NCBI GenBank assembly: GCA_023150565.1
Contig: JAKLKR010000004.1
Location: 1 to 64,000 of the forward strand
Length of the DNA: 64,000 nucleotides
DNA from: Planctomycetota bacterium
GTDB taxonomy: Bacteria > Planctomycetota > UBA11346
Reading direction: 5' to 3'
Positions 15,236 through 64,000 of the stretch are shown here, one piece after another (the stretch's first letter is position 1; each line of letters opens with the position of its first letter). Under the pieces are notes generated by a model. It had not been told where the DNA came from. It saw nothing but the letters and a program-made list of their open reading frames with translations, and ran no database searches. A program made the position numbers and the translations under genes.

Positions 15236-16069
15236 CTAATATATCACCGATCTAACGCTCGGTGATTTTTCCTTAAGTCGCGATTTAAGCCACTCACCAT
15301 CTCCATTTAACCCATCAATGTGGACACAAGATAAACCACGTATTGTTGACAATGCGTCCGCCAGCGCCCCGTCTAATACCACCCTTGATGAAGACAACAC
15401 CAATGTATCCACGGAGGCATTTAGACCACATAGGTGATTATGCACCCAATGATTATCAACGCTAGTCTCCCTAAAATCCAGGGTGTTATACGACAAGGCA
15501 TTTACATCCCTAAAGATGTTGGCCATGCAATCTGTATTCCGACTTTCCTGAAACGACAAACTAAGATTCCGGAGGCCAATAGGAACGTCCAACGAAAACC
15601 CTCTCAAATCCACCCCCATCAGCGCGATTGACTGCATGTCCTTGCTTGCACTGCAATTAAGTCCACCACCCATATTTTTACATCCATCTATCGTTACGCC
15701 AGTCGCCCTCTCACCCGTCACAAGCAACGTGCGACTCTCTGTAAAATAGCACCTTCTCATGGTCAGGCTCCGCAGACCCTTCCAATCATTCATCCCTCTC
15801 AGTGTTTCTCCGTCAATTTCCACATCGGCCATTTCAAAGTATTCTATAGACTGAACCTTCCTGAGACAATCAACAATCCAGCCTCGACCTCCGCCGACAT
15901 CAGCCGCGTTCAACGATCCCAAAGCATTCGCCTTAACGCAAAACTCTACAAAAACATCCTTTGTGAAGGCTGGATTTCGAATTTCCAGTCTCGTCACCCT
16001 TTTATTCATTCGTTGGATATATCGCCTTAACGCCTCGTCATTTGCAGATGGGCCACGTAAGCGCCACAT
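15236..16069 (-). CDS. Leucine-rich-repeat-like protein, the putative cognate immunity protein for the upstream RHS toxin.
   Basis: ATG at 16069 overlaps the RHS stop in a TGATG arrangement. The gene is lower-GC like the RHS C-terminal tip. Cys-containing LRR-like segments are present (LRSLTMRRCYF, LRNLSLSF, LSCVHIDGL). Confidence 0.5.
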   Translation of the reverse strand: MWRLRGPSANDEALRRYIQRMNKRVTRLEIRNPAFTKDVFVEFCVKANALGSLNAADVGGGRGWIVDCLRKVQSIEYFEMADVEIDGETLRGMNDWKGLRSLTMRRCYFTESRTLLVTGERATGVTIDGCKNMGGGLNCSASKDMQSIALMGVDLRGFSLDVPIGLRNLSLSFQESRNTDCMANIFRDVNALSYNTLDFRETSVDNHWVHNHLCGLNASVDTLVLSSSRVVLDGALADALSTIRGLSCVHIDGLNGDGEWLKSRLKEKSPSVRSVIY

Positions 16070-38325: not shown

Positions 38326-38882
38326 GATGATCGCCTCCGATGGAGACGGGTCATCATGGTCGGACGGCTCGGAATGAGCGAGACGTTCGTAAACCGATTA
38401 CGTTTTCATTGGGATCTCAGGCATTAATAGACCTGTTTGATGGAAATACCAGTGTTTGGATTGAAGTGAAATACCGCGAGAAAACGGTAAGCATTCGCGG
38501 AGGCGATCCGCGGACGGGGATATCATTTCAAACCTACAAGCAGTACATAAAAGACGCAGCGCATATCAGGCATCCCTGTTTACGTTATTTTTATTCAAGG
38601 CCAGGAAGGCGGCATTTACGGGTCACCATTAGAAAGCCTGGCTGTCAATGAGACGATGGACGTCTTCGATGCCACGCAACGGGACGGATCGAAGGTTCGG
38701 ATGATTGCCTGGGATGTAAAATCCTTACGGCCATATGGGCGACTTGAGGAAATGGTTGTCGATGAAACACGCAAAACAAGAAACGCCAGATTCTTTTTAG
38801 AACAATCCCGGTCTGAATGTTATTGGCGGTTTACCCCGCGATTGCATTGGTGCCAACCCCACCCATGTGCCCACCCTCGAAT

Positions 38883-47892: not shown

Positions 47893-50800
47893 CTACTGCG
47901 CAGTGGGCTCGACCACTTCCCCAGATTGCACCGTCAACGTCACCGCCCCGTAGCTGACCTCGACCACACCCTGCAACCGCAGCGGCCTGTCCCGATCCAG
48001 CAGCGGCCCATAGGTGCGGTAGGCCTGGGGGAACCACACCGTCTCGACCCGACCGGTTTCGTCTTCAAGGGTCACGAAGGCCATTGGTTCCGGCGGCCCG
48101 GCGCTGGAGCCGGGTTTGGGCTTGGGCTTGGCTTCCACCTGCTTGCGGGTGATCGGCCACGCCACCAGGCGCACCCGGGACTTGGCCATCCCGGCGGTCA
48201 GGTCCCGGCAACGCAGGTGATCACCGCGCCGGTCGCAGAAATGGATGGGGTGGCCCGCCGGCAGGAACCCGAGGATGCTGAAGATCTCCCAGGCCAGCAC
48301 GCGAGCGCTGCGTGGTGGGATGACCGGCGGGGTCGGATCCCGCGGCGGCTCCACCGGGAAGATGCGCTGAACGACCCCATCATCGTCTTCCTCGCCGCGC
48401 ACCAGGGGATTGAGGCCGATACTGGTGGCGACCCAGATCACCTGATCGCGGTGGCATTCCGGGCAGAGGGCATCGAGCGCACCGACTCGCGCCAGGATGT
48501 CGAGCTGGCTGGCGCTGAGACCGACTCGCCGACGCAGGTCGGCAATGCCCGCAAAGGGTCGGCGCTCGCGCTCCGCCACCAGCCGCCTGCCGCTCTCCGC
48601 CGACAATCCCGGCAGCAGATGGAGGCCGATACGCAGCGCATCGGCGCCCGCGCGCACGGTCGCCCAGCCGCTGGCGATCACGCAGAGGCCGAGGATGCGG
48701 ATGCCCGAGCGTCGGGCCTCCTCCAGGTAAGCGGACGGCTGGTAGAAACCACCCTCGTTGGCGATAACCCGGGCCAGGAAGTAGGCCGGGTGGTGTGCCA
48801 GCAGATAGGCGCACTGGAAGGACACCATGGCATAGCTGGCCGAGTGCGCCTTGCAGAAGCTATATCCCGCGAATGAGGCGATCATGCCCCAGACCGTGGC
48901 GATGGCCTCGGGCGTAGCGCCCCGGTTTTCGGCCCCCCGGCGGAATTCGTCGGCGAAACGGGTCAGCCGGGCCTGCGTGTCCCAGAGGCCGAGGGCCTTT
49001 CTGAGCGCGTTCGCCTGCCGGTCATCGAAGCCGGCGATCTCGACCGCCGCCAGCATCACGTCCTCCTGGTAGGAGAGAATGCCGTAGCTCTCCGACAGCA
49101 GGCCGCGCAGGGCGGGGTGCGGATACCACTCTGGCAGGTGCTGTCCGGTAGCGCGGTGATGAGCGAGGCGGTCGAGGTAGGTGTTGATCCAGCGATTCGC
49201 CGCTGGGCGGATGATCGAGCTGTGGATCACCAGACGGTCGAAGTCGCCAGATCCGGCCTTGGCCTGCAGCTGCCGCATCGCCGGGCTTTCGATGTAGAAA
49301 CACCCGAGGGTGTTGCCGCTGGCGACCAGGCGCCGGGTGAGCGGATCGTCGGCCGGTCGCCAGCGGTGCTCGTCGATGGTCACGCCGTCCTCGGCCAGAT
49401 CGGTGATGGTGTCGCGCACCACCGCCAATGAACGATTGCCGAGGAAGTCGATTTTGACCAACCCCATGATCTCGGCGCCGTCCTTTTCCCAGGAAATGGC
49501 CGGGACGGGAACGCGGGGCGGTGGCGCCTCGTCGTCGGGGTCGGCCTCCAGGGCGATATGCTTGGCGGCAGGATGGATCGGCACCAGATCGCGCAGCGGC
49601 TCGCGGGTGATGACCACCCCGCCGCAGTGCAATCCGGCATGGTGCGGGATGCCGATCAGGTGCTTGGCCTGGGCCAGGATGCCGGGCCAGGGCTCGGCGA
49701 GGCGCAGCGGCATGCCGTAGCGCTCATGCGCCTTCACCTGGGCGCGCACCGCCGTGGTCTCGCCGTCGCTGCGGCCGTAGGCACGCGCTACCACACGCAG
49801 CGCCGACCAGCGCCGAAGGTGGTTGTGGTTCGCCACCATGGCGACGTGGTCGCGGCCATAGCTGGCCATGGCAGCCGCGAGCACGGCATCGCGTTCATCC
49901 CAAGGGAAGTCGACGTCCAGGTCCGGGGGATCGATACGCGCCGGATTGAGGAAGCGTTCGAACAGCAGGTGATAGCGGATGGGATCGACATTGGTGATCC
50001 CCAGGCAATAGACCACCAACGACGAGGCTCCGCTGCCACGTCCGCAGGTCCGGCGTCCGGCGGCCAGATCAGCGACCGTCAACAGGTAGCCCGAGAACCC
50101 TTTGGCGCTGATTACCGCCAGTTCATGGTCGAGACGCTGACGGATCTCCGGCGTCTCGCGGGTGTAGCGCCGGCGCATCCCGGCCTCGGCGCGCTGACGC
50201 AGTTCGCCATCAGCGTCGGCATAGTGCGAAGGAGGCATGTGCCAGGAGCCGCCCGGCACGTAGGCGCATCGCGCCAGCAGGTCGCGCCCAGCGTCGAGGA
50301 GGAAGCCATGGTGGCGGAAGGCCACGCGCATAACGACGAGATCGGTCAGCGCCACCCCACTGGCGGCGACGCGCCCTTCGCGGTGGGCGACGGCGTGGCG
50401 CACCGCATCGCCGACACGATCAGCGGTGCCGAGATGGGTCAGCACCGGCAACGCCGCCGCCGGCAGGCCGACGGGCGGTGGATCGGGCTCCAGGCCGCAG
50501 CGCCACCAGACCTCGGCCCCGGCGTCGCGCAGCCGCGTGACGGGCCCGTCGTGGCGCACTAGGGCGACGATCTCACCCAGGTCGTGCCGGTCCCGACCCG
50601 CGCCGTCCTGCCACGCCATCCAAGCAGTGGGCTCCTCGGCCTGCCAAGACAGCAGGCGACAGAGGTGGGCGTAAGCGCTGGCGGTCGGAGCCAGCAACAC
50701 GACGTCGTGGTCGTCGTTCGTCGCCACGCCCGGCACGGCCCAGCGCACCGTCGCGCCGACGGCGATGCGCTCGCGTCCCCAGGCAGCGATGGTGGCCGGC

Positions 50801-51042
50801 AACCCAGACAGGCTGTCGCGGTCGGCCAGGAGCACCCGCCCGCACTGCTCACCCAGGCTGCAGCTGGAGCCCAGGGCCTCGGCCCAGACCGCTGGAGCAT
50901 GGACACCCTCCAGCGGCGAGAAGTGCGTTCGTACCGCCAGGGCTGGGGCCTCCCACCCGGCCAGCACGGCGCCGAGACGCCGCGGCTGGAGGCCGACGGC
51001 CGGCATCAGCTCCAGCGGGGGTGGGGTGACAACAGGCGGCAT
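47893..51042 (-). CDS. dnaE2: Error-prone DNA polymerase DnaE2 (ImuC). The start is uncertain.
   Basis: A PHP plus Pol III alpha core (DLDVDFPWDERDAVLAAAM, FAGYSFCKAHSASYAMVSFQCAYLLAHHPAYFLA) and a C-terminal OB region. The ORF-track ORF extends to 51699 with an implausible Gly/Arg/Pro-rich N-terminus, so I chose an internal Met near 51042. Confidence 0.8.
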   Translation of the reverse strand: MPPVVTPPPLELMPAVGLQPRRLGAVLAGWEAPALAVRTHFSPLEGVHAPAVWAEALGSSCSLGEQCGRVLLADRDSLSGLPATIAAWGRERIAVGATVRWAVPGVATNDDHDVVLLAPTASAYAHLCRLLSWQAEEPTAWMAWQDGAGRDRHDLGEIVALVRHDGPVTRLRDAGAEVWWRCGLEPDPPPVGLPAAALPVLTHLGTADRVGDAVRHAVAHREGRVAASGVALTDLVVMRVAFRHHGFLLDAGRDLLARCAYVPGGSWHMPPSHYADADGELRQRAEAGMRRRYTRETPEIRQRLDHELAVISAKGFSGYLLTVADLAAGRRTCGRGSGASSLVVYCLGITNVDPIRYHLLFERFLNPARIDPPDLDVDFPWDERDAVLAAAMASYGRDHVAMVANHNHLRRWSALRVVARAYGRSDGETTAVRAQVKAHERYGMPLRLAEPWPGILAQAKHLIGIPHHAGLHCGGVVITREPLRDLVPIHPAAKHIALEADPDDEAPPPRVPVPAISWEKDGAEIMGLVKIDFLGNRSLAVVRDTITDLAEDGVTIDEHRWRPADDPLTRRLVASGNTLGCFYIESPAMRQLQAKAGSGDFDRLVIHSSIIRPAANRWINTYLDRLAHHRATGQHLPEWYPHPALRGLLSESYGILSYQEDVMLAAVEIAGFDDRQANALRKALGLWDTQARLTRFADEFRRGAENRGATPEAIATVWGMIASFAGYSFCKAHSASYAMVSFQCAYLLAHHPAYFLARVIANEGGFYQPSAYLEEARRSGIRILGLCVIASGWATVRAGADALRIGLHLLPGLSAESGRRLVAERERRPFAGIADLRRRVGLSASQLDILARVGALDALCPECHRDQVIWVATSIGLNPLVRGEEDDDGVVQRIFPVEPPRDPTPPVIPPRSARVLAWEIFSILGFLPAGHPIHFCDRRGDHLRCRDLTAGMAKSRVRLVAWPITRKQVEAKPKPKPGSSAGPPEPMAFVTLEDETGRVETVWFPQAYRTYGPLLDRDRPLRLQGVVEVSYGAVTLTVQSGEVVEPTAQ

Positions 51043-51503
51043 GGAGTCGTTTATGGGTCTATAATAACCCATTCCAGCGACATTCTTGCACTCGCCGGAT
51101 GTTAACGGATTACATACTGTCACATCATAGCTTGCGTCGATATTATCACTCCCGTCGACTCCCAATCCAGGTCGACTCAGGCCAAGGACTTCTGCTGCCA
51201 GTCGGCGTCGTTGACCATCCGACGCGCCGGCCGGGAGACGGAGAAAAGCCTGCGACCAGCATCCGATAGGGTACGGTATCGTGGTCTCCGCCTGGCGTGG
51301 GCTAACGCCCATCTGCAGCCAAGGGGTGCGTGATCTCGACCCACATGCACTCCGCCTGAGGGGCATCGGCAACCCGCACTCGCAGGATAAAGTGCAGCCG
51401 GACCAGATCGCCGATCCGCTGCGAAGCACGTTCGGAGAGGGCAGGGATGAAGAAGGTGTCCGGGTTCTCCCGGACACAGCGTTCGACATCCTCAAGATCC
51501 CGG

Positions 51504-53501
51504 TCAGCCATGTTCCACTTCGTGTTGGCAGGCAGCGACCTGCATCGCCTGGCGCTGACAGGTCAGGATCCAGGTCGACAGCAGGAGGACCTCGGCACGT
51601 CCGCGGCCCTGGGCTTCGACCAGCCGGGCCAGGGCGGCACTCAGGCTGCCTAATCCCAGACCGCGCGCCTCGGATGCCGCCGCCGTCACCAGGGGCCATT
51701 GGCGGAAGGAGCGCATGCCGGCATTGCCGAGGGCAAGGCAGGCATCCAGGCAGCGATCCAGGACCGGCGAGGAGCCGAGCGGCATGGTCTCGTCGTCGGT
51801 ATCCTCCTCCAGGCCATCGTCTTCCTGGGCCGGAACGGAGAGGCTCGGCGGCGTTGGCTTGTCGGCCTGCGTCAGCGATCTGATGCCCGCGGGATCCACG
51901 AGGCTGATCGGATGCAGGCTGATCCCATCCGCCGTGATCTGGAGGCGGGCGAGCAGGCTGCGGTCCGCAGCATCAGGCAGCGATTCCACCTGGCTGATGG
52001 CCGCCTGCGTGTGGGCTGACTGCGGGATGATGATGGGGATCTGCCGGCCTCCCACATCCACCAGGCCACGGACCAGCAACTGCCGATGGGTGTCGAACTG
52101 GGCCGGCAGCCACTTGGCCGGGCGCACCAGCACAATGTCGCTGTTGACCTTCCGGTCAGCGAACCCGATCGGACACAGATCCGGGAGGCGGGTCCAGAGA
52201 TCTCGCCAATCCGCGGTTGGCGTCGGGAGATCAGCGATAGTCGTGGCATGCTGGGCATGCCAGCGGCTGGCAGGTCGTCCAGACAGCCGCTGGGCACGAT
52301 TGCGCCAAGCACCCATGAGGACGCCGCTGGCCGTGCTGATATGAGTCGGGCTGGTCGCACCCGGCCAGGGGCCCGGAGCTGCAGCCCGACTCATCGGATC
52401 GAACTCCGCGGTGGTGACCGGCCTGACTTCGCTCCAGGTGCACCAGCTGCGGTTGTGCTGGTCCCAGAAGTAGACGGAGAGGCCCTGGTATCCGGACAAC
52501 GTCTTCCAGGCCTCCAGGCCGGCACCGACGAGCTCAAGATTGTGCACCCGTTCGTACTGGGAGCGATGGACCCCGACCAGTTCCGGCGTCGGCTTCGTCA
52601 GGGCCTTGGACAACGCCCAGCAGGCGGCGGTCCGTTCCAGCAGCCGGGCATCCGAGGCCTGGGGGTCCCGCGACAGCCAGCCATCGATCTCCTGGGCCAA
52701 ACCCCGCACCAGGCGCTCCAGGCGGGGCAGATCGACGCCATGGGCAGCCATGGCCATGGTCCGGAACCGCTCGGCGTGGGTCGGCCCCGTCCGGGAGAAG
52801 CCCAGGCTGACCAGATCCTCGCAGAGGGCCGCCACCTCCTCGCAGACCTCGGGTCTGGTGCGGACGGCCCCGGACGATGCCTCCGGTACGGCATCCTCCC
52901 GCTCAATGGTCCGGCGTCCCTGCTGGACCTGCCAGGCCAGGACGACCGCCACCCGATGCACGCAGACACCCGGTTCATGGCAGGAGCAGAGCATGCCTCC
53001 CAGGCCACCACCCGGCATCCACCGGCATTCGGCGTTCCATTCCGCGATCCTGCCGATGAAGGGCGCCCCATCCTCGCAGGCGACGGATAGGCCGATCGCG
53101 AGTTCCCGACGGGCGCGCTTCCACATGGCCTTGCCGGCCCAGCGCTCCAATTCCTCATCCGGCAGTGCCGTGATCTCCGCGCCGCTTGGCTTAGGCGCTG
53201 AGGCGGCAACCTGGCCGGTTGCCGGCGCTGACCCGAGGTGCAGCAGGCAGGCCAGGATGTGGCGGCAGATGCCGCCGGCTGGGCAGGTACAGCGCGATTC
53301 GGCCGGCCGTTCGGCAAGCACCACCGTCTGCTGGTCCCAGCGCAAAGACACGCCAGCGGCTGTCTCGTCCAGGACCTCCGGCTTGGCCGATTCGAGGTCC
53401 TTGCGGGCGCGGCGAACCAGACCGCGGTTGGCGAGGGCGATCAGCTCATCGTCACCGAGCATCCGCGCGACGGCGGCGATGCGGTCGGCGAGGGCGCTCA
53501 T
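51504..53501 (-). CDS. SWIM zinc-finger protein (YehQ-like).
   Basis: CTCPAGGICRHILACLL matches the SWIM CxC...CxH motif. Last gene of the five-gene operon. Confidence 0.65.
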   Translation of the reverse strand: MSALADRIAAVARMLGDDELIALANRGLVRRARKDLESAKPEVLDETAAGVSLRWDQQTVVLAERPAESRCTCPAGGICRHILACLLHLGSAPATGQVAASAPKPSGAEITALPDEELERWAGKAMWKRARRELAIGLSVACEDGAPFIGRIAEWNAECRWMPGGGLGGMLCSCHEPGVCVHRVAVVLAWQVQQGRRTIEREDAVPEASSGAVRTRPEVCEEVAALCEDLVSLGFSRTGPTHAERFRTMAMAAHGVDLPRLERLVRGLAQEIDGWLSRDPQASDARLLERTAACWALSKALTKPTPELVGVHRSQYERVHNLELVGAGLEAWKTLSGYQGLSVYFWDQHNRSWCTWSEVRPVTTAEFDPMSRAAAPGPWPGATSPTHISTASGVLMGAWRNRAQRLSGRPASRWHAQHATTIADLPTPTADWRDLWTRLPDLCPIGFADRKVNSDIVLVRPAKWLPAQFDTHRQLLVRGLVDVGGRQIPIIIPQSAHTQAAISQVESLPDAADRSLLARLQITADGISLHPISLVDPAGIRSLTQADKPTPPSLSVPAQEDDGLEEDTDDETMPLGSSPVLDRCLDACLALGNAGMRSFRQWPLVTAAASEARGLGLGSLSAALARLVEAQGRGRAEVLLLSTWILTCQRQAMQVAACQHEVEHG

Positions 53502-54646
53502 CCGATCACCTTGGAGACCCAGGTGGCCAAGTGGTTCGGGGTCATGGCCCCGACCTCGGCGCCGGCGGCGACGCAGGCCTCTGCCGATTGGCGGTCGTAG
53601 GTCGGCTGGGCGTTCCTATCGAGGGCGGCCAGACCAAGGACCTTGACCCCATCCGACTTCAGTTTGCGGATCTGCGCAACCAGCGGCGTGATGCTGCCGT
53701 TCTCCATGAAATCCGTGACGAGCACCAGGATGGTCTTGGAGGGATGCTCGACGAGCGAGGCGCAGTAGCCGACGGCGCCGGCGATGTCGGTGCCTCCGCC
53801 CAACTGCACGGACATCAGGACCTCGGCCGGATCGTGGACGTGGTCGGAGAGGTCAACGACGTTGGTGTCGAAGGCGACGAGCCGGACCCGTACCGTGGGC
53901 AGGCCGGCGAAGATGGCGGCGATGACGGCACTGTGGATGACCGAGTCGGCCATCGAGCCGCTGCAGTCGACGGCGATGATCACATGCCAGGCCACATGCT
54001 TGCGGGATCGGTTGCGGAACACCAGATCGCGGGCCAGGAGCCGGCGATGGCGGGGGTCCCAGTGCTCCAGGTTCTCCCGCACCGTGGCCTTGAGATCCAG
54101 ATTGCGGCTGCAGCGGCAGCGCGAGCGCTTGTTGCGGTCGAGGCGACCCCACAGGGCCGGCTTCATCTCCTTCTCCAGCCGACGACGCAAGTCCTCCACG
54201 ACCTTGCGGACGATGGTCCGCGCCAGATCGAGCGTCTCGCCGGCCATCAGCCCTTTGAACGTCAGGACGGCCTTCAGGAGATCGTAGCTGGGTTCGAGGC
54301 GGCGCAGCGTCTCCGGATCGGTGACCAGCTCAGTCATGCCGTAGCGATCCAGGGCATGCCGCGTGATCACCTCGCAGGTGTCCGCTGGAAATAGATCGCG
54401 GACCTCGCGCAGCCAGGTGGGGATCTCCAGCACCGAGTCGCCGCTGCCGGCACCAGGACCCGACGCCCGACCGCCCTGCCCCACGCGCAATCCACGCCGC
54501 TGGTATTCACGGTTGTAAAGGAAATCGAGGACCCGGTCGACCCGTGTTCCGTGCGCACCGAGGGTCTGCCCCATCCGGTCCTCGGCAAACTGGCCGAGGA
54601 TGAGCCGCCACCGTTCAGCTGCCTGGCGATCCATCGGGTCAGGCAT
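53498..54646 (-). CDS. VWA-domain protein (YehP-like).
   Basis: MIDAS motif VIIAVDCSGSM and downstream VWA core. Overlaps neighbouring genes by 4-8 nt. Confidence 0.7.
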   Translation of the reverse strand: MPDPMDRQAAERWRLILGQFAEDRMGQTLGAHGTRVDRVLDFLYNREYQRRGLRVGQGGRASGPGAGSGDSVLEIPTWLREVRDLFPADTCEVITRHALDRYGMTELVTDPETLRRLEPSYDLLKAVLTFKGLMAGETLDLARTIVRKVVEDLRRRLEKEMKPALWGRLDRNKRSRCRCSRNLDLKATVRENLEHWDPRHRRLLARDLVFRNRSRKHVAWHVIIAVDCSGSMADSVIHSAVIAAIFAGLPTVRVRLVAFDTNVVDLSDHVHDPAEVLMSVQLGGGTDIAGAVGYCASLVEHPSKTILVLVTDFMENGSITPLVAQIRKLKSDGVKVLGLAALDRNAQPTYDRQSAEACVAAGAEVGAMTPNHLATWVSKVIG

Positions 54647-57023
54647 GGGAGCCTTCCAGGATTTGGATCAGGCCATCCCGCTCCAAGGCGTGGCGGACAA
54701 GCAGGTCGGCCGCGCGACCGATCTGCACATCGGCCAAGGCGTGACGACTCCCCAGGTGGCGGTCGATGGCCGGCAGACCAGCCCGGGCAGCGGCCATTTT
54801 TGCGACCTGATCGACCGCACGGGGTGGAAGCTCGGCAAAGGCCAGGCGGAGATGCGGCAGCGCCGCGACGAAGTGCTGCTCGTCCAGGAGCCGGAGGGTC
54901 TGATGGACGGCATCGATGATGGCAGGCTCACTCCAGCAGGCCGAGCGGGCAGCGCGCAGGACGCCCCGCAGAAAGCGACCCCCGACCGACGGGTCAGTCG
55001 TCGCCGCGCCGAGGTGGCCCGCCAGCTGGGCACCCAGGGCGGCGCCATCGGCCAAGCCATCATCGTACAGCAAGCCCCAGGCGGTTCCGGCCACCGCTGG
55101 ATTGGCGCCCTGCCGGATGTCCACCAGCCGTTCACGGCGTAGCGTCGGGCAGGTCGGTTCAGTCAACTCGTCGGTGAGGATCGACCACGAGAGCAGATCC
55201 TGGCAGGCGTCGTCCTCCGCTTCCGGGGGAGCCTTGGCGAGATCGGTGATGAGGTAGGCCGCCCGGGTCCAGGCTGCCAGCACACCCGCCTCGATCTCGG
55301 GCATGCCGTGGGCTTCCAGGGGCTCCCGGCCGGTGACCAGCAGGTGGAGGCTGTTGGCCGCTCCGATGACGCTGGAGACATCACCGTCGGTGGCGATCAG
55401 CTTCTCCACCCGGGGCAGCAGGACGCGCGCCTGGGCATGCAGGCCGCAGCGGCAGGCCTCGACGACCAGCCGTGCAGCTCGGTCTGCGCGCCGCTCGCCG
55501 TTCTCGGCAGCCTCCGCCAGTTCCAGGAGGCGGGCCGTGGCGGCTTCGACGATCGTGGCGCCGTACCGGGACTGCTCGACCAGCCGGGCTTCGACGCCGG
55601 GGTGCCACTGGTAGCGCCATATCTCGCGGACCCGATGCAGATCACCGCCCGTGGTGAAGTCTGGACCGGCCTCCTTGCGGGCGAACGGGACTTCCAGGAG
55701 CAGGATGCGGTGCAGGAAACGGCTCGACTCGCGATGGGCGGCTGAACGGTAGAGATCGAGATCCAGGCCCTGCTCCTCGACGCCCACCTTGAATCGCAGG
55801 GCCGCCGTCTGCCGTTCGAAGTCGAGCACCAGGGGAGGCCGACCGACTGCCTGGGGGACGATGCCGACCCGGTCGCCGGCCAGGATCTTGCGCACCTGGG
55901 CGAGGACCGCGACGCCTTCGATGTCACGGGCACCCTTGATGAAGCAACTGGTCACCGCATCCAGGAGGTCATGGCGGGTGGGATGGTCGTGCCCCCGGAA
56001 GGCCGCCAGCCGGTGGAGCTGGGCCACGGCCGCCGCGGCATCGGCTACTGATGGAGACCCGGTGTGGCCGCGCAGGTCCCGCGCGATGGAGACCATGAGG
56101 TCGTCGATCAGCTGGTTGTCCCACCGCCACTGCCAGAAGGCGGGCGAAGGCATGCCGCTGGCGTAGCCATTCAGGCGATCCAGCTGCAGGAAATCGTACC
56201 GCATCATCCAGGTCCCGGCGTCCTCCTCGCGGGCGACGGTCACCGGCTTGGGCATGGCGGGAACGGTCTGCGGCAACGCCACCGTGTGGAATCCACCGGT
56301 GATCACCACCACCTGACCGCTGACCTCGGCCAGCACCCGCTCGATCTCCGCCCGCATGCCGGCTTCACGGACCAGGTTCCCCTCGGCGATGACCTCCTCC
56401 GGCGTATGCGCCAGGCGGCAGGCGGTGCACCAGGCCAGGACGCCATGGAAGAAGTCCTCGGTGGAGCGTTGTCGGCCGTCGGTCTCGAACCAGCCATCCC
56501 ACAGGTCGTCGGGATCGCGCGCCCCAGCCCGTCGGCACGCTTGCACAAGCCACGATCCCTGCCGGAGCGACGTCTCCCGCTGCAGGCTGCGGGGACGATC
56601 AGCATCCGCCGCCGTCTGTTTGCTCAGGCGTTCGGTATGGACCATCTCCGGCCAGGTGAGATCGATGAACCGGACCTGGGCGCCAACGGCGTGCCCGGCC
56701 TGGACCGCCACCAGTTCAGGCGAGTACGCGCAGAGCGGATAATAGGCGGCGGCCCGACGCGGTGGCCCGTCGCCGCTCCGATCAGTGTAGGTGGTGAAGA
56801 CCGCGACAGGAGGCGACATGGCTGGATCGACCAGATGCCGCAGTAACGGAGTCGCGTCACGGGGGCCCTCGATGAGAACCGCGGATGGACGCAGCCGACG
56901 GATGACGGCGTCGGCATGGTGGGCGCAGGCCGGGCTGTGGTGCCTGATGGGCAGCCACACGATGCGCTGCGTCAGGTCCGGTCGCGGTGCCGCCCGCAGG
57001 ATGTCTGCGGCATCCAGGGTCAC
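54639..57023 (-). CDS. Large DUF5682-like protein (YehM-like).
   Basis: A 794-aa conserved hypothetical in the canonical position between the MoxR ATPase and the VWA gene. Confidence 0.5.
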   Translation of the reverse strand: MTLDAADILRAAPRPDLTQRIVWLPIRHHSPACAHHADAVIRRLRPSAVLIEGPRDATPLLRHLVDPAMSPPVAVFTTYTDRSGDGPPRRAAAYYPLCAYSPELVAVQAGHAVGAQVRFIDLTWPEMVHTERLSKQTAADADRPRSLQRETSLRQGSWLVQACRRAGARDPDDLWDGWFETDGRQRSTEDFFHGVLAWCTACRLAHTPEEVIAEGNLVREAGMRAEIERVLAEVSGQVVVITGGFHTVALPQTVPAMPKPVTVAREEDAGTWMMRYDFLQLDRLNGYASGMPSPAFWQWRWDNQLIDDLMVSIARDLRGHTGSPSVADAAAAVAQLHRLAAFRGHDHPTRHDLLDAVTSCFIKGARDIEGVAVLAQVRKILAGDRVGIVPQAVGRPPLVLDFERQTAALRFKVGVEEQGLDLDLYRSAAHRESSRFLHRILLLEVPFARKEAGPDFTTGGDLHRVREIWRYQWHPGVEARLVEQSRYGATIVEAATARLLELAEAAENGERRADRAARLVVEACRCGLHAQARVLLPRVEKLIATDGDVSSVIGAANSLHLLVTGREPLEAHGMPEIEAGVLAAWTRAAYLITDLAKAPPEAEDDACQDLLSWSILTDELTEPTCPTLRRERLVDIRQGANPAVAGTAWGLLYDDGLADGAALGAQLAGHLGAATTDPSVGGRFLRGVLRAARSACWSEPAIIDAVHQTLRLLDEQHFVAALPHLRLAFAELPPRAVDQVAKMAAARAGLPAIDRHLGSRHALADVQIGRAADLLVRHALERDGLIQILEGSHA

Positions 57024-58189
57024 GCAGGCTTGCCCTGGAACCGTCCCAGTGCCGCCGTCGCCGACTTGTGGAATTCAGCCCAGGTGCCGGCGCACTCCTT
57101 GGCGCGACGCGCCGTGACGGCCCCGAGATACTGCCGGAGCTTCTGGATGTCGTCGCTGCTGTCCTTGAGGACGGCTCCCGGGAGGTGGCGGCCGACATCG
57201 TCGGCGGTGAGCTTCTTGTCGCCGTAGTACCAGGCATCAAGGCTGGCGGCGAAGCCCACCGAGACGGCTTCGGCGGTCGACATCACGGCGGCCGGCTTCT
57301 CGACCGAGATGCCTTCCGGCGTGCTCCCGGTACGCAGATCCTGGAAGGCCGTCACCAGCAGTTCGACGATGTCGCGGTTGACCTTGGCCGGGGCGGCAGC
57401 ACCAGCGAGCAGGCGCTCGACCTCGTTGTGCACCAGTTCGACCTCATCGGCGAGGTTGGCGATCGGATGCACCGTCTCGAAGTTGAAGCGGCGCTTGAGC
57501 GCGCTCGACATCTCATGGACGCCGCGATCGCGCAGGTTGGCCGTGGCGATGACGTTGAAGCCGGGCTTGGCGAACAGCACCCGCTGATCGCCAGGCAACT
57601 CGGGGATCGTCATCATCTTTTCGGACAGGATGCTCACCAGGGTGTCCTGCACCTCCGGGGCGCAGCGGGTGACCTCCTCGAAGCGGACCAGAGACCCGGC
57701 GGTCATGGCGGTGTAGATCGGTGACGGGACGAGGGCGCGTGGCGTCGGCCCTTCGGCCAGCAGCAGGGCGTAGTTCCACGAGTAGCGGATCTGGTCCTCA
57801 GTGGTGGCGGCCGTGCCCTGGACCACGTTGAGCGACGTTCCGGAGATGGCGGCGCCGAGGAGTTCGGACAGCAGGCTCTTGGCCGTACCCGGCTCGCCCA
57901 CGAGCAGCAGCGCCCGGTTGCCGGCCAGCCCGATCACCGACCGTTCGACCAGCCGGTCATCGCCGTGGTATTTCCGGGAGATGGCGACCTTCCCCTTCTT
58001 GCCGTCCTTGGTGAAGGCCAGCTTCTCGCCATCGCTGCCCGTGATGAATGTGACGACCTGCCGCGGGCTGAGGTGCCAGCCGGCCGGGCGCGCGTCATCG
58101 CCCATGGCCGTGAGGGCGGCCAGTTCCTCGCCATACAGCACTTCCGCCGGTTGGCGCAGGATGGGAGCGGCGGTCGGGGCGGTGGTCAT
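57020..58189 (-). CDS. MoxR-like AAA+ ATPase (AAA_5, YehL-like).
   Basis: Walker A LLLVGEPGTAKS, Walker B/sensor regions. AAGGAT SD before ATG 58189. The ORF-track 5' extension to 58912 is a Gly/Arg-rich artefact. Confidence 0.8.
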   Translation of the reverse strand: MTTAPTAAPILRQPAEVLYGEELAALTAMGDDARPAGWHLSPRQVVTFITGSDGEKLAFTKDGKKGKVAISRKYHGDDRLVERSVIGLAGNRALLLVGEPGTAKSLLSELLGAAISGTSLNVVQGTAATTEDQIRYSWNYALLLAEGPTPRALVPSPIYTAMTAGSLVRFEEVTRCAPEVQDTLVSILSEKMMTIPELPGDQRVLFAKPGFNVIATANLRDRGVHEMSSALKRRFNFETVHPIANLADEVELVHNEVERLLAGAAAPAKVNRDIVELLVTAFQDLRTGSTPEGISVEKPAAVMSTAEAVSVGFAASLDAWYYGDKKLTADDVGRHLPGAVLKDSSDDIQKLRQYLGAVTARRAKECAGTWAEFHKSATAALGRFQGKPA

Positions 58190-58203
58190 CGGGATATCCT
58201 TGG

Positions 58204-61200
58204 TCACGTGGAAGCCTTCTTCTCCCAGTCGGGATCGAATCCCGTGCCCTGGGCTGCGATCTCGTGGACATCGTTCCAGCATTCGCTCAGCAGCGCCGCC
58301 GAGACCTCGGCGAGGGGACAGGCGGCAGCCTCTCCACCCGGGACGGTACGCTCGCAGGAAAGCCCGATCAGCGCTGTGGTGCGGTTCTCCTCCGGCAGGG
58401 AGTTGCCGGTGAACTCCAGCACCGCGGTCAGATGCGCAGCGGGGAAATGCTTGCGATAGACGTGGAACCAGCCGCCGTCCTCGGGCTGGCCGCGGGTCCA
58501 GCCCAGCTTGGTGGCGCGGGCGCGCAGGCTGAACGCCGCTACCAGATACCCGGTCCGGTCGGCGATCACCTGCTCTTCGGCCAGTTCCGCCGGCAGCGCC
58601 AGGGGAGGACGCTCGACCTGCGGGAAGAGCGGTTCGACCTCGTAGTCCGCGCAGTGGCTCCGCCAGCGGGCTGCGGCCTCGATGCCGATCAGGATGGGAT
58701 GTGCGACGGCGACCCAGGCCCCATCCGGCAGGACCACCGCTGCATCCTCCGCGTCCGTCAGGGTGCCATCCTCCAAGGCCCGGAAGGTCCCCGGCTTGGC
58801 CTCCGGCGCCGCCCACCAGGCCCAGACCACCCGCCGGCACAGCCGGCCGACGATGGGATGCGCCAGGAGGAAGGCGCGCCAGTCGGTGGCTTTCCAGCGC
58901 CGCCCGGTGCACATGGCCTCGTACAGGCGGTCGGCCTGCTGTTTCACGATAGTCTTGACCTGCTTCTTCGCCTCGCTGAACGCCTTCTTCGCGGTGGCGG
59001 CGGCCTCGGCGTCATCCCCTGCCCGCGGCGCCGGCAGGGTGGCGAGTTGGGCGCCGGCGGCATCCTGGACCGCCAGATCGAGATCGTCCTGGAGCAGGAC
59101 CGTGAAACTGCGCGCGCCGAAGGACAGGGTGAGCCTCCCCTCCTCGTCAAAGCCCGCCGCCGGGATGGTGCGGTCGGCCAGCTCATCGACGCTCCATCCG
59201 CGCTCGGCGGCAATCGTCTGTACGCAGACCTCGGCCTCCTTGCGGATGCCCGCGGTGCGGAACCGGGTGGCGGTGGCGAGCAGCACCTGGATGGCGGTCG
59301 AGTGGTCGGTCGCGGCCAGCATCTGGACCAGGGCCTTGCACTGCCCCGCACGCATGCCGTACCAGCGCTTGAGGTACTGGGCGGCCTGGGGGGCCAGGCC
59401 GGCCCCACCCATGGCTGCCGCCACTGCCAAGATGCCTTTGGCGCCGATCTGCGTGCTTACCGGGGTCTGCCGGTACTGGTCGACCATCCGATCATACCAC
59501 TCCTGGGCGGTCAGCACCGGAACGCCACCCAGGGCGGTCGTCTGCTGGGCCTGGATCGACGCCATCATCTGGGCGTTGGACATGATCGCCGCACTCTGGG
59601 CGCGCACATGGTCGGCGACCTGTTCCGGCGTCGGCAGGCGGGTGTCCTCGGCGATCCAGGCCTGGAGGAGGTGTTCGCCCAGACGATGGGCGGCGGCTGG
59701 TTCCAGCACAGCGGCATAGCGGCGCAGCAAGGGGGTTGGCGCCGGGTCCTTGAGCTTCCAGGACTGCACCAGCCACCAGGTGAGCACTTCCCGCTCCAGC
59801 AAGCCGCTGCCGTCGGACCAGGCGGGCAAGGGCAGGCCAGGGAGGGGCAGCCAGGCTAGGTCGGCCGGAACACCTTTGGCCAACCCCTTGGCCGCGGCTT
59901 TGGCCAGGCCGGGCCGGTCGAGGAAACGGTCAATCGGCACCCCGAGCCGTTCGAGCGCCGTCATCATGGCCGCCTTGGCCGGCTCCGAACGCTCCCCCTG
60001 CACCGCCGCCTCCAAGGCGGGGATGGAGGCTGGGTCCTTGAGCGATGCCAACCAATCGGCGGCGCGCAGCCGCACATCCTGTTTGCTGTCCTCCAGACCA
60101 GCGATCACCCGTTGCAGCATCCCGGGAATGCGACCGACAGCACGCTGAGCCGGACCACGCCGGGCACCATTGCCGCCGAAGGCCAGGTCCCACAGCAATG
60201 GCTGGAGGGACGCCGGGATCTCCGGGAAGCGCTCGACCAGGGCGAGGGCGTTGGCGGCACGCCGGTTCTCGAAGATGTCGTGATCCAGGGCCGGGGCTTC
60301 GCCCTGGCCCAGTGCTCCGGCGATCACCTCCGGATGTTCAGCATACCACTCCCAGAGGTCGTCGAGAGGCCAACGGAGTCCGAAATAGGAGCCCATGACC
60401 TCCCAGGCGATGTCGGCTGCGGGGATCCCTACCCGTTCGGCAGCGGCCAGGACGCGCCGGGTGCCGGTGGTGGTCCGGGTCGCCTTGCGGTAGCAGGGCA
60501 GGATGTTCTGCACCCACAGGCAGATCCCCCGGCTGTCATCCTGGTGACCACGCGGGGTGAACAGGACGGCCAGTCGGACGACCAGTTCCGGCGAAGCCCC
60601 CGGATCGGCCATCAGGGTCTGGATGACCGGCCGCAGGGCATTCCAGATCTGGTGAGTGCCTTGAGCCCGGTTCCAGGACTGGATGTCCTCGGCGGTGATG
60701 CCGGGGGCGGTCAGCAGCGTCATGAGCCGCTCCACATCGTCGGTGGTGAACGGCGTCGGCAGGGGAGGGATCGGCATCTGGAAGCGGGGATTGGATGCCT
60801 GATGAACCCGGATTCGACGCTCCTCCATCTCCCACCAGGACATCAAATGCTTCGACCAGGCCTCGGCCATCTGGGCGATGGCGGCCTGGCCGGCCGGCCC
60901 GAGCGGGCGGATGCCGGGATCCTCGATGGGAGGGAGCGCCTGGGCCTGCCCCTGAGCCCCCGCCACGGCCTGGGCCTGGAGGTCAGAGATGGTCTTGCGC
61001 ACGGATGGGACAGTTTCAGCCGCCAACCGTTCGGCCAGGAAGGGGGCAGGGTCCTCCGACGACCGCCGGGCGATGAAGCTGATGGCCAGGGACCGTTCGG
61101 TGGTGGATCCGGTCAACGCGTACGCATGAAGCAGGGGAAGGATTCCAGCCAGGGAGGTGCCCACCCAGGTTTCCGCCGCTTCGCGCAACCGTTTGGCATC

Positions 61201-62007
61201 ACCGACCAGGAACGCAGCGAGGGTGGAGGCGAAGGGCGTCGGATCGCACCCCTGCGTTTTGAGGAAATCTAGGCGCATCACCTGCGCCTTGCTGTCGCCC
61301 TGCGTCAGCTGGCTGCGCACCAGGTCCGGATGCCGAGCGACCGCCGCGGGCAAGCCGGGGATGACCCCGAGGAGACGGCCGGGGCCGAAGCGGTAGGAGG
61401 CGGTTTTCCCCTGGAGCGGGATGGACAGGGCTGCCAGCAGGACTGCTGTCCGGGAGGCCCCATCAAGGGTCAGCATCTCTTCCCAGCGGGCATGATCGAT
61501 GGAGGTCCCATCCATCGAGCTCCAGGAGTTCGGCCGTACCGAGGACGCCTCCCACAGCAGGACTTCCACCCACGGCGGCAGGCCAAGCGATTGCAGGAGC
61601 AGGGTCCGGGAGCCTGCGCGCGATGCCGCTTCGCACACCTGCCCCAGCCGACGAGTCTGGGCGGGGGATGGATGCGTCGCCGCCAGCCAATCAGCCCACG
61701 GATGGCTCATGAATCGGCTTGCTCCCGAGGCCACCAGCTTGAGCGCGGCGCCTCCCCCGGCGTTGGCCGCGAGATCGGCGATGACATCCGCATCCAGGCC
61801 GGCCACCACATAGCGGGTCGACCGGCGACCCAGATCCGGGGCGATCCGGTCCAGCGGTTCGAAGGCCGCAGCCAGTCGTTCCACTGCCGGCTGATCGAGT
61901 CCCCCGGGGGCAGCAGAGGATGATCCTGCCTGCACCAAGTCAGAAATCCACGATCCCATAGGGTCCCCCCGGTCACTCCACCCTAGGGAGGCGGTCCTGT
62001 CCGCCAA
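58204..62007 (-). CDS. DUF4132 (MolR/YehI-like) large protein.
   Basis: A 1267-aa protein with HEAT-like segments and a C-terminal DUF4132-like region. First gene of the operon. The start may be at Met 61959. Confidence 0.5.
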   Translation of the reverse strand: MADRTASLGWSDRGDPMGSWISDLVQAGSSSAAPGGLDQPAVERLAAAFEPLDRIAPDLGRRSTRYVVAGLDADVIADLAANAGGGAALKLVASGASRFMSHPWADWLAATHPSPAQTRRLGQVCEAASRAGSRTLLLQSLGLPPWVEVLLWEASSVRPNSWSSMDGTSIDHARWEEMLTLDGASRTAVLLAALSIPLQGKTASYRFGPGRLLGVIPGLPAAVARHPDLVRSQLTQGDSKAQVMRLDFLKTQGCDPTPFASTLAAFLVGDAKRLREAAETWVGTSLAGILPLLHAYALTGSTTERSLAISFIARRSSEDPAPFLAERLAAETVPSVRKTISDLQAQAVAGAQGQAQALPPIEDPGIRPLGPAGQAAIAQMAEAWSKHLMSWWEMEERRIRVHQASNPRFQMPIPPLPTPFTTDDVERLMTLLTAPGITAEDIQSWNRAQGTHQIWNALRPVIQTLMADPGASPELVVRLAVLFTPRGHQDDSRGICLWVQNILPCYRKATRTTTGTRRVLAAAERVGIPAADIAWEVMGSYFGLRWPLDDLWEWYAEHPEVIAGALGQGEAPALDHDIFENRRAANALALVERFPEIPASLQPLLWDLAFGGNGARRGPAQRAVGRIPGMLQRVIAGLEDSKQDVRLRAADWLASLKDPASIPALEAAVQGERSEPAKAAMMTALERLGVPIDRFLDRPGLAKAAAKGLAKGVPADLAWLPLPGLPLPAWSDGSGLLEREVLTWWLVQSWKLKDPAPTPLLRRYAAVLEPAAAHRLGEHLLQAWIAEDTRLPTPEQVADHVRAQSAAIMSNAQMMASIQAQQTTALGGVPVLTAQEWYDRMVDQYRQTPVSTQIGAKGILAVAAAMGGAGLAPQAAQYLKRWYGMRAGQCKALVQMLAATDHSTAIQVLLATATRFRTAGIRKEAEVCVQTIAAERGWSVDELADRTIPAAGFDEEGRLTLSFGARSFTVLLQDDLDLAVQDAAGAQLATLPAPRAGDDAEAAATAKKAFSEAKKQVKTIVKQQADRLYEAMCTGRRWKATDWRAFLLAHPIVGRLCRRVVWAWWAAPEAKPGTFRALEDGTLTDAEDAAVVLPDGAWVAVAHPILIGIEAAARWRSHCADYEVEPLFPQVERPPLALPAELAEEQVIADRTGYLVAAFSLRARATKLGWTRGQPEDGGWFHVYRKHFPAAHLTAVLEFTGNSLPEENRTTALIGLSCERTVPGGEAAACPLAEVSAALLSECWNDVHEIAAQGTGFDPDWEKKAST

Positions 62008-62314
62008 TCCCGTTGCCGCTGTCCGTGCAGGTGGATCCGCGGGCTGCCATAAGCCGGGCCGCTATCCTGGTGGTTGCGGCGGATGCGTTCGGCCACCGGG
62101 CGGTCCCGACCACGGCTATCCGGCGCTGCCGTTTGAGGCTAGCTGGCCAGGCGTCCGGGTCCACGGTGGGTCCAGATAGACGCTTCGGATACAGCACACC
62201 CACGCAACTAATTGGCGCGCAAGGCATAAGAACACCGTTGCACGAATGACGCCGCACGATACACACATATATCGACATTATTCCACAACGTATAACACAA
62301 AAGCCATACAAATA

Positions 62315-63454
62315 ATGATAGAAGACACACATTCTCAGCGGCCAGCACGCCTCTGGACCACCGTCTGCGCCATTGTCGAGGGGGCCCTTCAGCGCGATCA
62401 GAGTCGGGTCCTAGCTCAGGCCGAACATCTTGCTGGCATGCTCCGCACGACTGGTGACCCCGGTACCGCCAAGCGCCTAGATCAGATCCTGAAGCGCTGG
62501 GGCGCATCGACACTGGCTCCATCGGGCATTGGGATTGCACAGCCATCTCTGCCCGTCGACACCGAGTCGCGCTTGGCCTTGGCGGACGAATATCCCCCGA
62601 TGACCGACGCTGAGGTCATCCTCAGCCCCGAACACGACGCGGCGATCGCGAATTTCATCACCTATTACCAGGCGAGCGATCGCCTCGAGGCTGCCGGCGT
62701 CGGCCAGACGCCGGCCATCCTCCTGCACGGCCCACCGGGCTGCGGCAAGACCGTGCTCGGTCACACTATCGCTGGACGACTGGGACTGCCCCTGCTCGTC
62801 GCCCGCATCGACAGCATGGTATCCTCCTACCTCGGCGCGACAGCGAAGAACATGCGCCTCCTCTTCGAGCATGCCCAATCGAAACCATGCGTGCTCTTTC
62901 TCGATGAATTCGACGCCATCGCGAAGATTCGCGACGACAACCACGAACTCGGCGAACTGAAGCGGGTCGTGGTCAGCCTGTTGCAGAACATCGACAGCCT
63001 CGGGCGCCAGACCGTACTTGTTGCGGCCACCAACCACGAGCACCTGCTCGACCGGGCCATCTGGCGCCGCTTCACGCTGCACCTGCACTTGGAGTTGCCT
63101 GATGAACGGCTTCGTCGGCATCTTCTCGAGCGATTTGTCCGCGGCTACGCCGCCAGCGACGAAATCGACCTTTATGCCCGATTGACCGAAGGCTTGAGCG
63201 GCGCGGTCATCCGCACCTGCGCCGAGGACGGGGTGCGCGCGGCGATCGTTGCCAACGCGACCGCCATCCCCTGGGCGGACATGATCCGTCGGATCTTGGC
63301 CATCCGGCAGATCCCCCTGGGCGATGGCCGCAACGTCGATGACCTACGTCGCATTCGCGAACTCGATCCAAGATTCTTCACGCAGAAGCGGCTTGCCGAA
63401 CTTCATGATTTCAGCGTCAGTTACGTCCAGAAGATCCTGACCCGCCGGAGATAA
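62315..63454 (+). CDS. AAA+ ATPase of the Vps4/Msp1/katanin-like (AxxRRF) clade, with an N-terminal substrate-binding-like domain.
   Basis: Walker A ILLHGPPGCGKT, Walker B VLFLDEFDAI, sensor-1 ATNHEH, and DRAIWRRF. AT-rich promoter-like DNA at 62200..62330. I chose Met MIEDTHS at 62315. Confidence 0.75.
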   Translation: MIEDTHSQRPARLWTTVCAIVEGALQRDQSRVLAQAEHLAGMLRTTGDPGTAKRLDQILKRWGASTLAPSGIGIAQPSLPVDTESRLALADEYPPMTDAEVILSPEHDAAIANFITYYQASDRLEAAGVGQTPAILLHGPPGCGKTVLGHTIAGRLGLPLLVARIDSMVSSYLGATAKNMRLLFEHAQSKPCVLFLDEFDAIAKIRDDNHELGELKRVVVSLLQNIDSLGRQTVLVAATNHEHLLDRAIWRRFTLHLHLELPDERLRRHLLERFVRGYAASDEIDLYARLTEGLSGAVIRTCAEDGVRAAIVANATAIPWADMIRRILAIRQIPLGDGRNVDDLRRIRELDPRFFTQKRLAELHDFSVSYVQKILTRRR

Positions 63455-63456
63455 TC

Positions 63457-64000
63457 ATGCCACAGCACGACACCCCCAGCGAACCGCACCTACCCGTGAC
63501 GCGCATCCGGCCATTGGATACCGACATCATCCGGGTCGATCGAGACATCGTGCGCGAACCGCCACCGCCATTGCGATCCGATCTCGACGCCTGGCGCAAC
63601 ACCCTGGTCGCTCGCTTCGACGACATGGTCGGTGCCGTCCGTCAACGCGATTCCAGCTTTCCCGGCGTTCCGTCTGTGGCCCGCATCCGTCTGACCAAGA
63701 TGGCCAAGAGCTACCGGCCGGTCACGGGCAACCCGCATGCATTCTTCTCTCGGCGTCGTTGCCCGATGATCGGAGCCGAGTCCGGCCACCACATGCTCGT
63801 GATGGCCCAGGCGCAGGGGCTTGACGAAGTCCGTGCCCGCGTGGCTGCTACAGGGGATGCCTGGTCCGACTTCTACGTCAGCAACATCGAGGATGCCCAT
63901 CTCAGTGATGCCATGCATCTCTGCCCACGCTCCAGTCTCGATGCCGTTGTCGCCGCATGGGAGTCGCCACACATCCCACTGCAGATCCGTCTGTTCGATT
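63457..64000 (+). CDS. Hypothetical protein, translationally coupled to the AAA+ ATPase. Partial: the 3' end runs off the window.
   Basis: Open frame from ATG 63457, 2 nt after the upstream stop, to the window end with no stop (MPQHDTPSEPHLPVTRIRPLDTDIIRVDRDIVREPPPP...). Not in the ORF track because it is truncated. Confidence 0.5.
   Translation, partial: MPQHDTPSEPHLPVTRIRPLDTDIIRVDRDIVREPPPPLRSDLDAWRNTLVARFDDMVGAVRQRDSSFPGVPSVARIRLTKMAKSYRPVTGNPHAFFSRRRCPMIGAESGHHMLVMAQAQGLDEVRARVAATGDAWSDFYVSNIEDAHLSDAMHLCPRSSLDAVVAAWESPHIPLQIRLFD

Follow-up and report, generated by a model that had tools for sequence, protein, structure and literature searches.

A probable divergent IetA-IetS ATPase-peptidase pair at the edge of a Planctomycetota contig stretch

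The ATPase-peptidase gene pair

The stretch of DNA analysed here, referred to as the window, comprises positions 1 to 64,000 of contig JAKLKR010000004.1 from a Planctomycetota bacterium (GenBank assembly GCA_023150565.1). At its right end two closely spaced genes are located on the plus strand, an AAA+ ATPase gene (62315..63454) and a second gene starting at 63457 that is cut by the window end. These two genes are very likely a divergent copy of the described IetA-IetS pair (Gao_Iet or IetAS; iteA/iteS at NCBI) and are termed ietA and ietS in the following. An earlier reading of the window, made from the letters alone (the original prediction), had described an AT-rich segment (62200..62330) in front of an AAA+ ATPase with an AxxRRF motif and an N-terminal domain, followed by an open reading frame (ORF) that starts 2 nucleotides (nt) after the ATPase stop and runs off the window. 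All of these elements were recovered. The segment (131 bp) exhibits a GC content of 43.5% compared to the window mean of 66.8% (standard deviation 6.7% over 131-nt windows). The longest ATPase ORF (62246..63454, 402 amino acids, aa) matches the Pfam family AAA (PF00004, 4.7e-29), the motif is present as AIWRRF (63056..63073), and the AAA core begins only after an N-terminal extension of about 120 aa. The ATPase stop codon TAA is located at 63452..63454, and the ATG of ietS lies at 63457, 2 nt past it, in a frame open to the window end.

The downstream sequence was obtained from the Logan contig L001 (9197 bp), which is identical to window positions 59465..64000 (0 mismatches in 4536 nt) and reaches 4.66 kb further. 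On this contig the partner is completed as an S8 peptidase of 777 codons (L001 3993..6326, equivalent to window positions 63457..65790). The window itself contains the 5' part of ietS (63457..64000, plus strand), i.e. the first 181 of these codons, encoding a non-catalytic N-terminal domain.

Both proteins show full-length matches to the IetAS families of PADLOC. The ATPase matches IetA (PDLC02196) with 1.6e-121 and 404 bits over model positions 4-370 of 374, and the completed partner matches IetS (PDLC02197) with 5.9e-160 over positions 6-745 of 749. Full-length matches to phage protein families were detected as well, with phrog_3757 for IetA (1.1e-97) and phrog_3964 for IetS (7e-109). The NCBIfam models IteA and IteS were the top models for the two proteins, with scores of 392.7 and 461.2 bits. 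The respective cut-offs of 510 and 900 bits delimit a narrow equivalog and not the wider family, and the lower scores mark the pair as a divergent IetAS member. Owing to these scores the ATPase carries in GenBank only the name "ATP-binding protein" (MCK6486988.1), and the pair is not flagged there as a defence system. In addition to the full-length matches, the ATPase gene comes first, both genes are adjacent on the same strand, the Walker motifs and the protease residues are intact (both are needed for function in homologues that were tested), and the distribution is accessory and horizontally mobile. A compact defence cassette of an ATPase and a partner such as an S8 protease, as the original prediction had suggested, is thereby supported by both the PADLOC matches and the S8 domain.

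Features of IetA

The start of ietA is most likely the ATG at 62315 and not the one at 62246, judging from sequence comparison. The exact 379-aa protein is on record whereas the 402-aa version is not, the reading frame of a 91%-identical homologue does not extend further upstream, and M1, encoded at 62315, is where the family alignment begins. The 402-aa form was rejected for these reasons. With the start at 62315, roughly 70 bp within the AT-rich front are upstream leader and not, as in the longest ORF, coding sequence. The protein in GenBank comprises 338 aa and begins at M42. This call looks too short, since residues 13-41 are conserved; it cuts 41 residues and loses N-terminal helices.

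IetA is a generic classic-clade AAA ATPase of the substrate-threading kind and the putative antitoxin or regulator of the pair. Its assignment is based on the ranking of profile hidden Markov model (HMM) scores (PAN 106.6, FtsH 104.2, Cdc48 88.8 and CdvC 84.9 bits) and on the nearest solved folds, which are FtsH, PAN/Rpt, Rix7 and p97, all of them unfoldases, and NVL, with fidgetin-like-1 at rank 46. The ATPase had initially been placed in the Vps4/Msp1 clade. Only the RRF motif favours this label, whereas HMM scores and folds rank PAN, FtsH, Rix7 and p97 nearer and give it no support.

The catalytic motifs were inspected in an alignment of 40 IetA homologues. Walker A (GPPGCGKT, G139-T146, 62729..62752) and Walker B (LFLDEFD, residues 194-200, 62894..62914) are invariant. 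Sensor-1 N240 (63032..63034) and the second region of homology LLDRAIWRRF, containing the arginine fingers, together span 63032..63073, with T239, N240, H241, W250, R251, R252 and F253 invariant. The motif SSYLG (residues 170-174, 62822..62836) resembles pore loop 1; S170, S171, L173 and G174 are invariant. It probably represents an aromatic-hydrophobic-Gly pore loop, the motif type of substrate-threading classic AAA unfoldases.

The AlphaFold2 (AF2) model of IetA (mean predicted local distance difference test, pLDDT, 84) consists of an N-terminal bundle, a disordered linker, the AAA core with its lid and a C-terminal helix-turn-helix (HTH)-like module. According to the AF2 secondary structure, the N-terminal three-helix bundle covers residues 9-64 (62339..62506) and is followed by the disordered linker (64-78) and a conserved PVDxESR / LADE segment. 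Positions conserved in the N-terminal part throughout the family are I20, G23, A24, D28, V32, Y35, L39, P80, D82 and A90. The C-terminal three-helix module (residues 341-376, 63335..63442) is modelled with helices at 341-350, 357-364 and 368-376 (pLDDT 83-92). It shows a weak match to Pfam HTH_31 (0.049) and family-conserved residues F355, L360 and S367, and one homologue carries the source name 'predicted XRE-type DNA-binding protein'. Neither a signal peptide nor a transmembrane segment was found in IetA.

Features of IetS

IetS contains a Pfam Peptidase_S8 domain (6.8e-22, residues 279-559). The catalytic residues D285, H313 and S520 as well as N415 of the oxyanion hole are invariant, and all four lie beyond the window end. 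The original prediction had found no assignable motif in the partner. This is correct in so far as the part inside the window is non-catalytic, yet the N-terminus of IetS is matched by the PADLOC model (8e-10) and the NCBIfam model (8.4e-09). IetS has neither a signal peptide nor a membrane segment and is a cytoplasmic protein.

A structure model was built on the 88%-identical protein P0001 (pLDDT 81.6, predicted template modelling score 0.86) and forms one compact body. The best structural matches were pro-Tk-SP (3afg, 609 columns aligned including the propeptide), KP-43, SubHal, Kex2/furin and unprocessed pro-subtilisin E. By sequence, no PDB entry was matched by IetS. The model indicates a layout of a family-specific N-terminal region, a propeptide-like domain, the S8 catalytic domain and a C-terminal beta-jelly-roll. 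The propeptide-like part of the N-terminal region would begin at about residue 170. Further upstream, the N-terminal domain carries the motif AKS(H/Y)RP (A83-P88, 63703..63720), in which A83, K84, S85, R87 and P88 are invariant (alignments A1 and A4). It sits in a predicted disordered loop (residues 84-94, pLDDT <50) of the otherwise confident model. One might speculate that this motif is a processing site or a recognition site for IetA.

Pairing and distribution of the family

Relatives of IetS were searched in one genome per species. Of 186 relatives found, 80 loci were kept. They belong to Planctomycetota, Acidobacteriota, Verrucomicrobiota, Cyanobacteria, Bacteroidota, Myxococcota, Campylobacterota, Beta- and Gammaproteobacteria, Firmicutes, Actinomycetota and one bacterium of the candidate phyla radiation. 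In 78 of 83 loci, ietA is the gene immediately preceding ietS on the same strand. In four of the five exceptions IetS is located at a contig edge; the fifth (L043, 5902..7518) is a truncated solo IetS-like protease of 538 aa lacking both the N-terminal domain and an upstream IetA. The two genes typically overlap or are separated by a few nt (median junction -4 nt), and the distance of 2 nt observed here is within the norm of the family.

An exhaustive search of 1.84 billion cluster representatives with IetS yielded 273 matches at E <= 1e-30, the best of them 38% identical, and close copies were found on three contigs only (L001, L002 and L004). For IetA, relatives with about 50% identity number in the thousands. 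The pair is a divergent, sparsely sampled lineage of IetAS, and this kind of system is already known. Plasmid records matching the IetA query at E <= 1e-20 amount to 635, a number that includes other AAA ATPases since only 68 records reach at least 80% coverage. On an Acidovorax plasmid the pair (annotated as iteA/iteS) lies between an integrase, a Shedu nuclease and IS21 copies. On a metagenome contig an IetAS homologue is located beside an MmeI-type (type IIG) restriction-modification (RM) enzyme, an Mrr-N protein and a PLD-SNF2 helicase.

The cassette is part of a mobile block

The closest copies of the pair are those of the Planctomycetota metagenome-assembled genome UWPOB_PLANC5 (L004) and the Logan contig L002, with about 84% DNA identity. 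At the protein level these copies are 88% (IetS) and 90-91% (IetA) identical to the window proteins. The DNA identity of 84% is limited to a segment that opens about 10 nt ahead of the ietA start codon and closes with the stop of the fourth gene, equivalent to window positions 62305..68191 (5.9 kb). To the left of this block, L004 carries a two-component system and an outer-membrane protein, whereas the window carries an operon with a DUF4132 gene. The sole part of the block not conserved with L004 is the spacer of about 100 nt between ietS and the third gene. The GC content at third codon positions is 75-77% in the cassette compared to 82-83% in the neighbouring DUF4132 operon. The cassette is accessory and horizontally mobile, and it lies in a sharply bounded block. 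A housekeeping partner in a syntenic core context, which the original prediction had named as evidence against a defence module, was not found: the flanks in L004 are unrelated, and the family is scattered over phyla, plasmids and PHROG families.

We searched for direct or inverted repeats flanking the 5.9-kb block as marks of insertion and found none that were convincing. An empty site was sought through relatives of the DUF4132 protein in metagenomes. Three loci were obtained, of which the closest ends before the junction and the others are too distant (38-47% identity) to be of use. Behind the four-gene block, L002 (5067..12648) encodes a methyltransferase, a protein with an NmeDI_C domain, two metallophosphatases and a large serine recombinase. 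The NmeDI_C assignment stems from precomputed Pfam hits, and our own Pfam scan gave none at E <= 0.001. This neighbourhood suggests that the block in L002 lies in a mobile defence island.

The upstream region

The divergent intergenic region (62008..62314) separates ietA from the DUF4132 gene, which starts at 62007 on the minus strand. The segment 62200..62330 is among the AT-richest 0.5% of the equal-sized (131-nt) windows, and the minimum GC content over 100 nt is 38% at 62226. The AT-rich core (62200..62314) is the probable promoter and leader of ietAS. A plausible promoter is TTGCAC (62238..62243) and TACACA (62260..62265) with a 16-nt spacer (62238..62265, plus strand), although the two hexamers do not reach the consensus threshold of the scanner. 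The leader aligns only partially with that of L004 and is mostly poorly conserved. Kept are TTGCAY and TACACA at 16-nt spacing and the surroundings of the start codon, and it is this retention of both hexamers and their spacing amid poorly conserved sequence that points to a promoter.

No Rfam family was found in the intergenic leader (62008..62314), and scans of the leader for a strict sigma-70 consensus, for a terminator consensus and for repeats detected no consensus match and no meaningful repeat. A structured RNA or a special element was rejected on these grounds. The AT-rich front is an ordinary upstream region of the family, since in 71 of 76 related loci the 150 nt upstream are AT-richer than ietA itself, by 9 points on average. 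The window is a mosaic in GC content (49% to 76%). A further stretch as AT-rich as the ietA leader, of which the window has few (38364..38835), is adjoined by a gene for an rve-family transposase/integrase (38883..40358, minus strand).

The two downstream genes

Beyond the window end, ietS is followed by two overlapping genes encoding proteins of 417 and 347 aa (L001 6430..8723, equivalent to window positions 65894..68187). Homologous gene pairs are located at L002 2752..5045, L004 8494..10787, L086/L087 6742..9065, L088 6745..9035 and L090 6729..9038, with protein sizes across loci of about 420 and 347 aa. Searches of Pfam, NCBIfam, PADLOC 2.0 and PHROGs gave no match for either protein. More than 400 relatives across phyla belong to the 347-aa family, in which E13, E14, D42, D44, D62 and K64 are invariant. 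These N-terminal residues, with D62-x-K64, resemble a PD-(D/E)xK nuclease-like motif; a profile search with the family gave noise only.

The 347-aa gene is also found in Klebsiella, in Chloroflexi and, on one contig, directly behind a type I RM system. In all of these places ietAS is absent and a homologue of the 417-aa gene comes first. Neighbours of the two genes comprise the type I RM system, UvrD-like helicases, AAA_23 and DUF4917 proteins and transposases. The two genes look like an independent, so far undescribed island module and a candidate defence system, and they are a more novel lead than the ietAS pair. That they constitute an undescribed anti-phage system which is at the same time functionally coupled to ietAS, e.g. 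by synergy or a shared trigger, seems to us rather improbable. An architecture of four genes throughout the family was rejected, as the two similar-sized genes behind ietAS in L003 are not homologous and the 417/347 pair is present in no other IetS locus.

Possible function of the pair and alternative explanations

A subtilase toxin and an ATPase antitoxin have been reported for plasmid pTiC58 (Yamamoto 2009, as cited in PMC13069673 and PMC8562856), for SgiAT of SGI1, whose ATPase is of the AAA type (PMC5006074), and for TA132/133 of Mycoplasma mycoides (PMC8562856). Phage protection by ietAS depends on an active protease, and cloning of an ietA mutant was not possible (Gao 2020, as cited in PMC13069673). 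The system of Bacillus cereus acts by abortive infection and is triggered by YosG of SPbeta (bioRxiv 10.1101/2022.08.27.505566). By analogy, IetA of the window would engage IetS in the uninfected cell by means of ATP hydrolysis and the pore loops, or remodel it, and IetS would thereby stay latent. The uncleaved propeptide-like domain may add to this latency. A phage cue might disable, titrate or divert IetA or alter the IetA-IetS complex. Freed IetS would then cleave cellular or phage proteins, and growth would stop before the phage cycle is completed and phages are released. The HTH-like module of IetA may autoregulate the ietAS promoter, as in type II antitoxins.

Several points weigh against this reading. 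IetS is only 26-38% identical to all relatives outside its own small lineage, so that the function is transferred over a long distance, and the role assumed here would be carried over from homologues outside Planctomycetota. Both proteins remain under the NCBI equivalog cut-offs (392.7 compared to 510 bits, 461 compared to 900 bits). The genes annotated as ATP-binding protein and S8 peptidase at NC_003065 97873..101373 are, going by this annotation, presumably ietA and ietS of pTiC58. In BLASTP this ATPase (328 aa) matches the AAA core of IetA only (33% identity, E = 7e-34, residues 93-282), and the protease matches IetS only around the Ser motif (E = 4e-4). By sequence, the pTiC58 pair is a member of a different subfamily. 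Furthermore, the way in which ietAS acts against phages is described as still not known (PMC13069673, April 2026). The latency step by unfolding or remodelling through IetA and the autoregulation by the HTH-like module are steps that we infer, and the leader contains no conserved operator-like repeat for such an autoregulation.

Alternatively, the pair might mainly be an addiction module that stabilizes its mobile block or island by post-segregational killing, with defence at most as a side effect. This we regard as unlikely. It is true that ietAS was first described as a plasmid-stabilizing toxin-antitoxin (TA) module on pTiC58 (cited in PMC13069673 and PMC8562856), that the SGI1 homologue stabilizes a genomic island (PMC5006074), that many homologues are plasmid-borne and that the window pair lies in a sharply bounded block moved between genomes. 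However, homologues of the same HMM families protect from phage by abortive infection (bioRxiv 10.1101/2022.08.27.505566; PMC13069673), the pTiC58 pair is only distantly related to that of the window, and neither the window nor L001 shows replication, partition or integrase genes adjacent to the block. Besides, the two roles are not exclusive. A housekeeping machine for protein quality control like the proteasome, FtsH or Lon, in which an AAA unfoldase feeds a protease, would agree with the protease partner, the aromatic pore loop and the similarity of IetA in fold and sequence to FtsH, PAN/Rpt and p97. The proteases of homologous pairs are toxic without the ATPase (PMC8562856, PMC5006074), which is the opposite of cooperative degradation. 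The taxonomic spread is patchy, the genomic context varies by locus, and homologues are found on plasmids, beside insertion sequence elements and defence genes, and in phage protein families, all of which makes such a machine extremely unlikely.

Finally, IetA, IetS, the 417-aa protein and the PD-(D/E)xK-like 347-aa protein could act as one unit, an extended ietAS variant analogous to ietHAS, for which an added essential gene has been described (PMC13069673). In L001, L002 and L004 all four genes are kept in the same orientation, and the homologous DNA stretches from some 10 nt in front of ietA to the stop of the 347-aa gene (equivalent to window positions 62305..68191). On the other hand, the 417/347 pair is absent from the other 80 IetS loci and occurs without ietAS in Klebsiella, in Chloroflexi and beside the type I RM system, and the gene pair of similar size behind ietAS of L003 is not homologous. 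The unconserved spacer of about 100 nt between ietS and the 417-aa gene suggests separate transcription units. A four-gene unit thus appears very improbable, and we favour the interpretation of the two genes as an IetAS pair.

The gain from this identification is modest, as IetAS has been known as a TA module since 2009 and as a defence system since 2020. It corrects an annotation, the Planctomycetota "ATP-binding protein" being ietA, which forms a defence or TA module with its S8-peptidase partner, and extends the sampled diversity of IetAS to Planctomycetota. To our knowledge, phage defence has hardly been studied in this phylum. The divergent pair also shows which features are kept, namely, in IetA, the aromatic pore loop and the HTH-like module and, in IetS, the invariant AKSxRP loop together with the propeptide-like and C-terminal beta domains.

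Other genes of the window

A five-gene operon on the minus strand (51504..62007) is divergent from ietA. It encodes a SWIM zinc-finger protein (51504..53501), a CoxE-like VWA protein (53498..54646), a DUF5682 protein (54639..57023), a MoxR-type AAA_5 ATPase (within 57020..58912) and a DUF4132/HEAT protein of 1267 aa (58204..62007). The SWIM and VWA genes correspond to GenBank entries MCK6486983 and MCK6486984. Apart from a weak HEAT-repeat match, PADLOC detected no defence genes in this operon or in the window's other low-GC parts. The operon is closely followed downstream by a gene for a DNA polymerase III alpha-type protein of 1268 aa with NTPase, finger, HHH and OB domains (47893..51699, minus strand).

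An RHS-repeat protein of 1756 aa (16069..21339, minus strand; Pfam RHS_repeat 1.8e-76) is encoded by a gene whose 3' end, together with the region downstream of it (both within 15000..21339), has a GC content of only 49% compared to 67% for the window mean. This low-GC end would be compatible with a toxin tip that varies and an accompanying immunity gene. A gene for an SPFH/Band 7 domain protein of 693 aa (9922..12003, plus strand; 9.4e-18) borders the low-GC region that spans 12 to 22 kb.

Comparison with known systems

The window pair shares with IetAS/Gao_Iet (Gao et al. 2020, as cited in PMC13069673) the same full-length families, the gene order and coupling, the intact triad and AAA motifs and the context of defence islands and mobile elements. 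In comparison to other members, it is only about 50% (IetA) and at most 38% (IetS) identical, and it travels with an unrelated two-gene module. With the pTiC58 locus (NC_003065) it has in common that an AAA ATPase gene is followed within a few nt by the gene for a large cytoplasmic S8 peptidase. SgiAT (S026/S025) and TA132/133 are likewise pairs of an AAA-ATPase antitoxin and a subtilase located in chromosomal islands, for which toxicity and neutralization were demonstrated experimentally (PMC5006074, PMC8562856). These two were studied as maintenance or TA modules and not as phage defence, and they are likened here by their description. The ietHAS system (Liu-DS4; PMC13069673) consists of three genes including one for an SNF2 helicase and has an ietAS core, a protease-dependent defence and an antitoxin-like ATPase. 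Unlike ietHAS, the window pair is not accompanied by a helicase gene, its neighbours being the divergent DUF4132 operon and unrelated downstream genes.

Among subtilases, pro-Tk-SP, KP-43 and Kex2/furin align with IetS from the propeptide-like region through the catalytic domain into the C-terminal beta domain. These proteins have signal peptides, act as secreted or processing proteases and share 12-16% identity with IetS. Compared to such pro-forms, IetS is cytoplasmic, carries about 170 further N-terminal residues that are specific to its family and, by analogy with its homologues, probably depends on an AAA partner.

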